A DNA stretch of 64,000 nucleotides from Rhizobium sp. (GTDB taxonomy: Bacteria; Pseudomonadota; Alphaproteobacteria; Rhizobiales; Rhizobiaceae): assembly GCA_002796995.1 (NCBI GenBank), contig PEKW01000005.1:512892-576891 (forward strand), written 5' to 3'. Positions within the stretch are counted from its first letter, which is position 1; every line of letters begins with the position of its first letter. This document shows positions 11,970-14,631 of this stretch, piece by piece. The notes below the pieces were generated by a model. The model was not told the DNA's origin and searched no databases. It saw nothing but the letters and a program-made list of their open reading frames with translations. A program made the translations under genes and the position numbers.

Positions 11970-12341
11970 TCAGGCTCCGACGGTCTCGCTCACATCATCC
12001 AGCAGGAAATACACCACGACGTACTTCGTCGAATACGGCCGGCCGCTCTCCGAAACGCTTTCCACGGTTCCACCGTCGGCCGGGTGCCATTGGCCATAGT
12101 GCGGATTGTTGACGATCAGCGTCACAGCCTTGCCCGAAAACTTCCCCTGAAGCCTATGACGCGCCTCGGCGAATGGCCAGATCCGCTCATAGTCCTCCTG
12201 GGTGAGGCGCACCTTCAGCGCCTTGCGGTGGATCGCCTCACCGGCCGATCCGTCTTCGCGCTCCGTCGCCGGACTATCAAGCGTCACTTCCTCCGCCTCA
12301 TCGAAAATGAAGCGGAATTCATCGGGCCACATGCGTCTCAT
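11970..12341 (-). CDS. Hypothetical protein (123 aa)
   Basis: Strong GGAGGAG RBS before ATG 12341; MRRMWPDEFRFIFDEAEEV...KYVVVYFLLDDV; 3' part of ORF 11970..12584. Confidence 0.75.
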   Translation of the reverse strand: MRRMWPDEFRFIFDEAEEVTLDSPATEREDGSAGEAIHRKALKVRLTQEDYERIWPFAEARHRLQGKFSGKAVTLIVNNPHYGQWHPADGGTVESVSESGRPYSTKYVVVYFLLDDVSETVGA

Positions 12342-12613
12342 CAAATTGCTCCTCCCGAGCGTTTCCCGCTGAAGTGTACCGCGTCCGCCGCCGGAAACAA
12401 CGCATGAATCCATCGCCTTGCCCCGACCCACCGGAAAATCGCGGCCGCAGGCTCGGTTGTGCGATGGCCCGTGCTCCCGGCACATCCGAGCCCTCCGTAG
12501 CATCAACGTCGGCTTTGAGTGCCGGAAAAGCGACGTGGCCCACGATATTCCCCACCTCATCGAGGCGGAGATCCGGTGAGACAAATCGAAGAAAAACGTC
12601 GGAAAATGGAAAT

Positions 12614-12628
12614 TGGTGGGCCCGGAGG
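12614..12628 (-). repeat. att-like copy of the last 15 nt of tRNA-Ile2 (CCTCCGGGCCCACCA)
   Basis: Exact match to 14556..14570. Confidence 0.9.
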
Positions 12629-12725
12629 CTACCGGAATGCCAGGAGTTCTGGGCTTTCGGGAGAGTTCGATGGCACGTCACCCCCATAAAGACCCCACAT
12701 TTCTCTCAACCCAAATCCGGTTAGT

Positions 12726-13346
12726 TCAACTACCCTCCTTGGGCGGAGTCGTGATTCTGTCGGACGCCATTGTTTCCATCCTTTTAGCGACCTGAACAGG
12801 TGGCTCTCCATGTCCGCGCCATGAGTAGTGGTTTCCCGCGCTGTCGAAGGCGATCCTGAAATTCGGATAGTCGTTCCCAATGCGACGCATGAGATCCGTG
12901 TAGGCTGCGATCGGCACAAGCCAGAGGTGGCTATCATTGCGATCGGATGTCACAAAGAACCCGCTGACCCGGAGATCGCCCTCAGCGTAAACGCACTCCG
13001 AAAACACCCTACTATGGACAATGATGTCCAGCAGGTAGCCTACACCGAGCGCGCAGGTCGAGGGCGCTTCCACATCGAACGCTTCCCAGAAATTATGTCG
13101 CTTCCACCAATCCAGCTTCTGCCCTTGGAGAAGTCCATACCTTTCCGCTCGCAGGCTGCGCCCCTCGACATCGCTTGATACCTTCTCGCATTCGATGAGT
13201 TTCCGCATCGCGAAAGCCGAGACGAACACCTTTCTCTCGATCAGCATGGAGCCGCGCTCCGTGGCCCGCGTCTTTGCCGCCCACCGCTCTATAAGATCGG
13301 CATCGTTGAGCAACTGGTCTTTCCAGGGTGCGCTTTCGGCGATCAC
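12726..13346 (-). CDS. Hypothetical protein (206 aa), islet cargo
   Basis: GTG start overlaps the upstream stop (GTGA); globular-looking sequence (ERKVFVSAFAMRKLIE...LLDIIVHS...FFVTSDR). Confidence 0.8.
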   Translation of the reverse strand: MIAESAPWKDQLLNDADLIERWAAKTRATERGSMLIERKVFVSAFAMRKLIECEKVSSDVEGRSLRAERYGLLQGQKLDWWKRHNFWEAFDVEAPSTCALGVGYLLDIIVHSRVFSECVYAEGDLRVSGFFVTSDRNDSHLWLVPIAAYTDLMRRIGNDYPNFRIAFDSAGNHYSWRGHGEPPVQVAKRMETMASDRITTPPKEGS

Positions 13347-13996
13347 ACCTTTCGACCTCGATGTTCGGCAATTTGATGAGGGAGGTCGTATACGATTTTC
13401 AGCAGCATACTTAGATACTCGACCACTGCCAAAGCATCAGCGGCTAAAGTCCCAGACGCGCCCGGCATCGGATGCGCATTGCTGTTTCCAATCTCCCTCA
13501 CCTCATGCGCCCAATCCACCATGATCGGCGGCAATATGCCCTTGCTACCGAGGTCTTTGATCTCCTTAAACAGGCTGTCGCCTTCAGCCTCCTGATAACG
13601 AAGGATCAACTGCACGGCGCTTCGTGCCATCAGTGCAGCGGCGTCGTAGTTTGACGCCTCAACGCTTCGTTTCGCTTGCAGCCAATATCGCCCAACATCG
13701 TCAGGCCAGTGCTCGGGCCATCTCGTCGTATTGCGAGGCCACGGAACTTGGTGGATTCCGACAAGGCCAGAATTTCCCATGCCCCAAAATACGGAAGTCA
13801 GATTACCGCACTGCTGACAGACCAAAACGTCATAATGTAACTCTTTCGACTTATCCGGCTTCGTCTTGGATACCCTGCTTTCAAAGCCAAACCGACCGAC
13901 TTCTCCGCAGAAGCCGCAGGTAACTTCATTAAGCGGCAGGTCGCCGTCGTAGCTTCGGTATCCCCTTCCTTCCCCTAGATCCCACCAACTCATCAC
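13343..13996 (-). CDS. Zn-ribbon plus DUF4145 (HEPN-like) domain protein
   Basis: CGFC...CQQC; DAAALMARSAVQLIL, SLFKEIKDL, WAHEVREIGNSNAH (RxxxNxxxH). Confidence 0.82.
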   Translation of the reverse strand: MMSWWDLGEGRGYRSYDGDLPLNEVTCGFCGEVGRFGFESRVSKTKPDKSKELHYDVLVCQQCGNLTSVFWGMGNSGLVGIHQVPWPRNTTRWPEHWPDDVGRYWLQAKRSVEASNYDAAALMARSAVQLILRYQEAEGDSLFKEIKDLGSKGILPPIMVDWAHEVREIGNSNAHPMPGASGTLAADALAVVEYLSMLLKIVYDLPHQIAEHRGRKV

Positions 13997-14398: not shown

Positions 14399-14444
14399 CG
14401 TCACCCCCCGGCGTTACCCCCGCATAAGCCTCAAGGGGTAACGC
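14399..14444. repeat. Cluster of CGT(C/T)ACCCC motifs (two direct, one inverted); a further copy at 12676..12685
   Basis: cgtcaccccc 14399, cgttaccccc 14412, ggggtaacg 14435, cgtcaccccc 12676. Confidence 0.7.
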
Positions 14445-14555: not shown

Positions 14556-14631
14556 TGGTGGGCCCGGAGGGACTCGAACCCCCAACCAAGCGGTTATGAG
14601 CCGCCGGCTCTAACCATTGAGCTACAGGCCC
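14556..14631 (-). tRNA. tRNA-Ile2, anticodon CAT (lysidine type)
   Basis: GGGCCTGTAGCTCAATGGTTAGAGCCGGCGGCTCATAACCGCTTGGTTGGGGGTTCGAGTCCCTCCGGGCCCACCA; 76-nt cloverleaf with encoded CCA. Ile2 rather than Met is inferred from its resemblance to alphaproteobacterial Ile2. Confidence 0.93.

Follow-up and report, generated by a model that had tools for sequence, protein, structure and literature searches.

The defence system PD-T7-4 was discovered by functional selection in Escherichia coli (Vassallo et al. 2022, PMC9519451), and this system, of E. coli UMB1727, was renamed RAZR (ring-activated zinc-finger RNase) once its mechanism had been solved (Zhang et al. 2026, PMC13017515). RAZR is a single-protein system in which a Cys4 zinc-finger domain at the N terminus is joined to a DUF4145 HEPN RNase at the C terminus; a 24-mer forms around ring-shaped phage proteins (recombinase-like Gp77 or portal), and the assembled protein cuts single-stranded RNA, leading to abortive infection (PMC13017515). 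Substitutions of R146 and H154 abolish defence, and specificity is set by the zinc-finger domain (PMC13017515). Here we describe a distant member of this family, gene A, which overlaps an uncharacterised gene, B, in a 1.94-kb islet with att-like ends behind a tRNA(CAU) gene of Rhizobium sp. (contig PEKW01000005.1, positions 512,892 to 576,891; this whole stretch of 64,000 nucleotides is referred to as the window, and all positions are counted from its first letter unless stated otherwise). Despite their overlap, A and B are two independently selected modules and form no obligate pair. The two genes and the segments of A on which the comparison with RAZR turns are as follows:

13343-13996, minus strand: gene A, RAZR/PD-T7-4-like, a Cys4 zinc ribbon (N terminus) followed by a DUF4145 HEPN RNase domain (C terminus) (open reading frame (ORF), profiles and model)
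13808-13918, minus strand: zinc-ribbon cysteines of A, CGFC (residues 27-30) and CQQC (60-63), which align to the zinc-finger domain of RAZR in structure 9y9c
13472-13498, minus strand: predicted catalytic motif of A, REIGNSNAH (residues 167-175), R167-x3-N171-x3-H175, from the alignment
13343-13346, minus strand: GTGA overlap, the stop codon TGA of A and the start codon GTG of B, four bases common to both genes
12726-13346, minus strand: gene B, 206 amino acids (aa), an uncharacterised stand-alone family and the distal gene of the islet family (ORF, profiles and model)

Gene A encodes 217 aa when read from its GTG codon, or 216 aa from the next ATG, one codon later, which is the start used by database entries. 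It matched the Pfam family DUF4145 (PF13643) with an E value of 4.7e-15 (55.9 bits, cut-off 23.1) and the PADLOC profile for PD-T7-4 (PDLC04109) with an E value of 3.3e-11 (41 bits, profile positions 12-155 of 211), a profile for which no curated cut-off is given and whose last quarter is unmatched by A. A match to phrog_1305 was also found. Among solved structures, the sole significant match was to chain OA of 9y9c (phmmer E value 2.9e-5, ~25% identity), a structure that contains 24 copies of this 219-aa 'DUF4145 domain-containing protein'. The alignment starts at the first CxxC, ends at the catalytic motif and matches both CxxC pairs and the R-x7-H residues, with REIGNSNAH of A aligned on RIVGNQAVH of RAZR. 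Residues C27, C30, C60, C63, R167, N171 and H175 are invariant across 34 homologues of A.

The AlphaFold2 model of A (pLDDT 91.7) revealed an N-terminal domain with a four-stranded beta ribbon (residues 36-84) and a helical C-terminal domain, the latter superposing on the HEPN toxins HepT, 7ae6, 5yep and 2hsb (Foldseek probability 0.97-1.0, TM-score 0.5-0.72), which are comparators in the RAZR paper too (PMC13017515). The Foldseek search with this model did not return 9y9c itself, so the link between A and RAZR rests on the sequence match together with the shared HEPN neighbours. Overall, each of the sequence- and fold-level tests of RAZR/PD-T7-4 membership placed A in the family, and gene A is a distant member (~25% identity) of this known, single-gene defence system. 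Judged by sequence, it would be a HEPN-superfamily RNase of the defence type, with a predicted activity and trigger.

RAZR and A are alike in size (219 versus 216-217 aa), in domain order (Cys4 zinc ribbon, linker, DUF4145 HEPN) and in the R-x7-H spacing, which aligns residue by residue; A also matches the PD-T7-4 model and lies on a mobile-element-like islet. They differ in that identity is only ~25%, in that the host of A is an alphaproteobacterium and in that the trigger, oligomeric state and activity of A are predicted. The locus also recalls the HEPN-MNT (HepT-MntA) type VII toxin-antitoxin systems, given an overlapping two-gene operon and a C-terminal domain of A that superposes on HepT. 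Unlike in those systems, however, the adjacent gene is not an MNT antitoxin, as B contains neither an MNT nucleotidyltransferase domain nor any other known domain; A has a sensor zinc ribbon that is absent from HepT, and A is also found without B. An earlier, sequence-only reading of this stretch had pointed to the 4-nt GTGA overlap, to the CxxC...CxxC and REIGNSNAH motifs of A and to conserved-looking RKLIE and IIVHS segments of B, and all three observations are borne out by the coordinates and by the conservation across homologues. Its view of A as a DUF4145/HEPN defence-type protein on a tRNA-linked islet is likewise supported by the profile and 9y9c matches. Where it went further and proposed a new defence or toxin-antitoxin module, A does belong to a defence family, but one that has already been described as a single-gene system and is therefore not new.

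Elsewhere in the source genome, a second DUF4145 match was found in a 255-aa ORF (G000:C28:14157-14435, L032), although it is weak (23.9 bits) and just above the cut-off.

Gene B belongs to a fairly large family. A profile search of 1.84 billion cluster representatives returned 1,406 relatives at E ≤1e-3, counted as clusters at 50% identity, and 923 at E ≤1e-10. The best 150 relatives are mostly 150-260 aa long, with one single match stretch each and no sign of fused domains, and the family consists of stand-alone proteins of about 175-210 aa. The RKLIE (residues 48-52) and IIVHS (108-112) segments hold the most conserved positions of the family: in an alignment of 122 sequences, R48, K49, L50, H111 and S112 each show at least 92% conservation, and M1, I2, S5, W8, K9, L12, E37, K55, S134 and D135 complete the list of the most conserved residues. 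No match to B was found in Pfam, NCBIfam, PADLOC or PHROGs, a Pfam scan of 126 diverse family members gave no credible match, and a PDB search with B sequence profiles found nothing. In the AlphaFold2 model (pLDDT 88.8, pTM 0.83), a pair of long helices at the N terminus precedes an alpha/beta domain with a seven-stranded sheet, and Foldseek searches of this model against the PDB and BFVD returned nothing at E <0.1.

Two candidate assignments of B were rejected. A GAF or LuxR-ligand-domain fold received weak, scattered matches (TM-score ≤0.2) that we did not trust. The suggestion of the sequence-only reading that B might be a divergent HEPN protein did not survive comparison: hhalign against the DUF4145 profile gave a probability of 0.1%, no Rx4-6H motif is conserved, the fold is alpha/beta and not a helical bundle, and none of the 126 family members matched a HEPN family in Pfam. 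Our best guess is that B works independently, as an accessory or defence-associated protein whose small polar site, for catalysis or binding, is formed by E37, R48, K49, K55, H111, S112, S134 and D135.

The source genome also encodes a distant paralogue of B (G000:C31:2147-2572; L038 1357-2007, minus strand) of 216 aa, with an E value of 8e-6 to the B profile and a W-K...E...CMRRLIE pattern in common with B. Another genome of the order has a near-identical copy of this paralogue (L037), there next to GNAT acetyltransferase-like genes. Within the 3' end of A, ~60 nt upstream of the B start, lies a promoter-like site, TTGGCA-17-TATGCT (13404-13432, minus strand), which is no more than a candidate internal promoter for B, as the number of such matches is not above the shuffled expectation.

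We compared 94 B-family loci outside the source genome and 13 A-type loci without B. An intact A precedes B in only one of the 94, in Rhizobium sp. J15 (L001), where A is 93% and B 83% identical to the window copies and the two genes together share 79% DNA identity. In one further locus (L088), an intact B stands behind an internally deleted remnant of A that retains the first 27 and last 20 codons. The tRNA(CAU) gene beside a SIMPL gene, which is the insertion site in the window, is also the site in L001-L004, L088, L089, L107 and L108, and each gene occurs alone there: L107 and L108 have an A gene (78% identity) but not even a vestige of B, and in L004 B is present and A entirely absent. Elsewhere, A was found without B in L099-L106, with homologues lacking B being 70-78% identical. 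The claim of the sequence-only reading that the pair is a defence system is thus not supported, and the co-occurrence it had proposed as a check largely fails, contrary to what a conserved two-gene defence system would show.

The partners of B are also exchanged among close relatives. The closest B of all (L127, 92% identity) lies behind a beta-class DNA methyltransferase gene and not behind A. Copies at 77-79% identity follow a gene for a 407-aa uncharacterised protein (L002), a gene for a 122-aa membrane protein (L119), a methyltransferase pseudogene interrupted by four in-frame stops (L090), or no partner gene. When the window is compared with islets that have other partners, DNA homology begins exactly at the B start codon (GTGA), and homology to an A-only islet stops ~10 nt before it. 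Maximum-likelihood analysis placed the methyltransferase-linked B copies at the base of the tree and showed shuffled partners in the crown clade, with the window B sister to the methyltransferase-linked L127 (support 100/98). The ratio of non-synonymous to synonymous substitution rates (dN/dS) is 0.06-0.12 for B in all comparisons, including those copies whose partner is deleted (L088) or decayed (L090), and 0.03 for A. Such strong purifying selection indicates that both are real genes. Together, the co-occurrence, partner-swap, tree and dN/dS results establish A and B as independently selected modules.

In Rhizobium tibeticum (L105/L106), a RAZR-like gene with 70% identity to A shares a larger island with genes for a RES-domain toxin and putAbiC and with numerous small uncharacterised genes; the gene that follows it is uncharacterised, encodes 211-230 aa and is no homologue of B.

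Within the Rhizobiales clade, the small tRNA-linked inserts that carry B invariably end with it. At 10 of the 94 loci, B is found together with a methyltransferase gene, each time of one family, that either overlaps it or lies 0-60 nt away. The methylases of L003 and L125 are 60% identical, and the L125 B is 53% identical to the window B; since methylase and B have co-diverged, this is probably the older arrangement. The source genome encodes only two methylases, CcrM and a Type III-like Mod, with the partner methylase being 28% identical to CcrM, and no cognate of the partner methylase was found in it. Other defence-like neighbours in Rhizobiales include a RiboL-PSP-HEPN-like protein (L041) and a combination of two methylases with a PLD-like protein (L084). 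Small enzyme genes can overlap the end of a DNA methyltransferase gene without encoding a restriction enzyme, as in the dcm-vsr arrangement. In the ancestral-looking arrangement, B resembles that layout by directly following and overlapping the methyltransferase gene without behaving as a restriction partner, but the analogy is one of layout only: the methylase is of the beta class (N6A/N4C) and not C5, and B is unlike Vsr both in sequence and in fold.

Outside this clade, B follows tRNA-Gln in Bosea and Chelatococcus, or aroC, recG or queF, and it also occurs on plasmids beside transposases and RelBE, with Cas3 and PDC-S33 neighbours elsewhere. In Actinomycetota (including Mycolicibacterium and Mycobacterium; L019-L028, L064, L068 and L073), homologues of ~160 aa lie in a conserved block with ThrE-type exporter and WhiB-family genes, and these look vertically inherited rather than mobile. 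Overall, B is present in 5 of 401 genomes of the order, and none was found in phage records. Neither all-against-all clustering of neighbours nor family tallies revealed a same-strand partner of B that is conserved across all loci.

The islet stands out from its surroundings by a GC content of 55-59%, compared to ~65% around it, and has the following features at its two ends:

14556-14631, minus strand: tRNA gene with a CAU anticodon, called tRNA-Met by ARAGORN; integration target, with the attL repeat copy in its 3' end
14556-14570, no strand assigned: attL-side 15-nt direct repeat TGGTGGGCCCGGAGG, at the tRNA 3' end, from a repeat search
12614-12628, no strand assigned: attR-side copy of the 15-nt repeat, 98 nt past the B stop codon
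14399-14407, 14412-14420 and 14435-14443 (inverted), no strand assigned: cluster of three CGTYACCCC motifs near the tRNA end
12676-12684, no strand assigned: fourth motif, CGTCACCCC, between the B stop codon and attR

The source genome has three CAU tRNA genes (on C17, C30 and C31), and the 76-nt one at the islet may encode lysidine-modified tRNA-Ile2 rather than the Met(CAU) species assigned by ARAGORN. The 15-mer TGGTGGGCCCGGAGG has two copies only in the 4.77-Mb genome, both at the islet ends, and in four islets (the window, L004, L088 and L089) the tRNA 3'-end repeat lies 65-100 nt past the B stop. None of the ORFs in any islet contains an integrase domain, small ORFs in the non-coding ends have no Pfam match, and no integrase remnant was detected between the tRNA and A or past B. 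An insert bounded by direct repeats of the tRNA 3' end with no integrase inside is what characterizes integrase-less tRNA islets of the cis-mobilisable element (CIME) type. As in those elements and in defence hotspots or other gene-exchange slots, variable defence-type cargo lies between two conserved arms, here the tRNA and B. Unlike in those, the distal arm is a rare accessory gene and not a core gene, and the junction falls exactly at its start codon; mobility is putative. CGTYACCCC has 71 copies in the genome, and the cluster at 14399-14443 is the sole one with at least three copies within 300 nt. The motifs at the two islet ends may be arm-type sites for a recombinase acting in trans. As a feature common to the islet family, CGTYACCCC was rejected, being absent from the related islets L001-L004, L088 and L089.

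We consider it likely that the islet combines a RAZR-type, single-protein abortive-infection RNase with an unrelated, independently selected anchor gene that is expressed by coupling to A. By analogy with RAZR, A would idle as inactive oligomers until its zinc-ribbon domain binds a ring-shaped phage protein, either a portal or a recombinase ring, and templated assembly would then switch on the R-x7-H site of the HEPN domain, with RNA cleavage and a stop of translation as the consequence. From this likeness we infer that A should act as an autonomous abortive-infection RNase. B would be the conserved last gene of a tRNA-linked islet family and not the toxin, antitoxin or HEPN partner of A. The slot between the tRNA and the B start appears to have been refilled with a beta-class DNA methyltransferase gene (probably the ancestral partner), RAZR, the 122-aa membrane protein, the 407-aa protein or nothing, most simply through homologous recombination (allelic exchange) in which the tRNA and B serve as flanking arms. 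Expression of the window copy of B probably comes about through translational coupling to A. The invariant ATGA/GTGA start of B (Met-Ile) provides an in-frame upstream gene with a stop codon, so 4-nt overlaps would form easily.

Several observations pull the other way. The 4-nt overlap implies co-translation of A and B, and at least three lineages have inherited their junction (the window, L001 and, as a remnant, L088), so a functional interaction between A and B may exist within this sub-clade. A is only ~25% identical to E. coli RAZR, and its trigger, oligomeric state and RNase activity are predictions. Finally, the neighbourhoods of B outside the Rhizobiales clade are mostly housekeeping, a poor fit to a role purely as an islet backbone.

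The overlap, the surviving junction in L088 and the co-inheritance of both genes under purifying selection at 79% DNA identity in the window and Rhizobium sp. J15 speak for a true two-component system, with B as antitoxin, regulator or adaptor of the RAZR-like RNase, or with A sensing and B executing. We regard this as unlikely, given that each gene is found without the other at the same tRNA site, that one intact pair occurs among the 94 other B loci and none among the 13 other A loci, and that the nearest B homologue is partnered by a methyltransferase. RAZR is also autonomous in E. coli (PMC13017515). That B outlasts the deletion of A under purifying selection argues in the same direction, although an orphan antitoxin could do so too; the occurrence of A without B, however, would not be tolerated by an obligate toxin-antitoxin pair. 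The recurrence of methyltransferase-B pairs, close or overlapping at 10 of 94 loci, raises a different partner for B, with B as the nuclease half of a restriction-modification-like pair and the window copy orphaned by insertion of RAZR. The co-divergence of the two genes in L003 and L125, the basal position of methyltransferase-linked copies in the B tree and the order of core elements in B (alpha-beta-beta-beta-alpha-beta) would fit such a role. Yet a Type II nuclease is not retained without its cognate methylase, the loss of which would kill the host of a classical restriction enzyme, and B stays intact and under constraint beside a methyltransferase pseudogene (L090) or remnant (L004) and where that gene is absent (L088 and the window). 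Moreover, neither CcrM nor the Type III-like Mod of the source genome is close to the partner methylase, Foldseek detected no nuclease fold in B and no D...(D/E)xK motif is conserved. Since B repeatedly outlives the methylase and has no cognate in its own genome, a classical restriction role is unlikely, and we give the pairing as a whole a very low probability.

Two further possibilities concern B by itself. It could be a stand-alone protein against phages or mobile elements, making the islet a two-cassette mini defence island, which is compatible with the preferred reading as far as the pair question goes and which we regard as a tentative possibility. Its patchy, horizontal-looking distribution (5 of 401 genomes of the order, yet several phyla and plasmids), its defence-type neighbours in Rhizobiales (RAZR, methyltransferases, RiboL-PSP-HEPN-like and PLD-like proteins), the Cas3 and PDC-S33 neighbours elsewhere and the strong purifying selection all point this way, but B has no PADLOC match or recognisable effector-like domain, many homologues sit among housekeeping genes (aroC, recG and queF, or the ThrE/WhiB synteny of Actinomycetota) and no phage record carries it. 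Alternatively, B might serve the islet itself, through maintenance, recombination directionality or mobilisation in trans of a CIME-like element. This would account for the constant position and orientation of B next to the distal att repeat in four islets, for the lack of an integrase in all of them and for candidate arm-type CGTYACCCC motifs at both ends of the window islet, their cluster being unique in the genome. It is nevertheless the least probable of the explanations considered, as copies of B are also found at a distance from any tRNA or repeat, no DNA-binding or recombinase fold can be recognised in the protein and related islets from which the motif is absent keep B. Returning to the preferred reading of B as the anchor of an exchange slot, a more specific version would have it as the fixed 'tail' of that slot, with cargo spliced at its start codon and translationally coupled to it, and with B acting as a common downstream component (regulator, safeguard or effector) or as a new stand-alone defence protein; this remains rather doubtful.

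Gene A extends the known RAZR family to rhizobia and adds no new principle. The junction between A and B is a clear case in which a tight 4-nt overlap is misleading, as the modules recombine independently. B marks an unannotated family of ~1,400 clusters with a confidently predicted fold that lacks a neighbour in the PDB or BFVD, and in tiny tRNA islets devoid of an integrase it has repeatedly been joined to one or another defence-type gene. Should B turn out to act in defence or regulation, the tRNA-to-B slot would be a handy place to seek new alphaproteobacterial cargo genes.

Beyond attR, an ORF of ~120 aa at 11970-12410 has no family match and is retained by 15 of the 41 related genomes. 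Two relatives (G411 and G402) have this segment directly beside the same tRNA gene but in inverted orientation, so there may be a further cassette beyond attR that can move or invert. Elsewhere in the source genome, a 333-aa ORF precedes the 656-aa Type III-like Mod methyltransferase gene (L129, region of G000:C6:66173-67330), and this region may be another defence locus.

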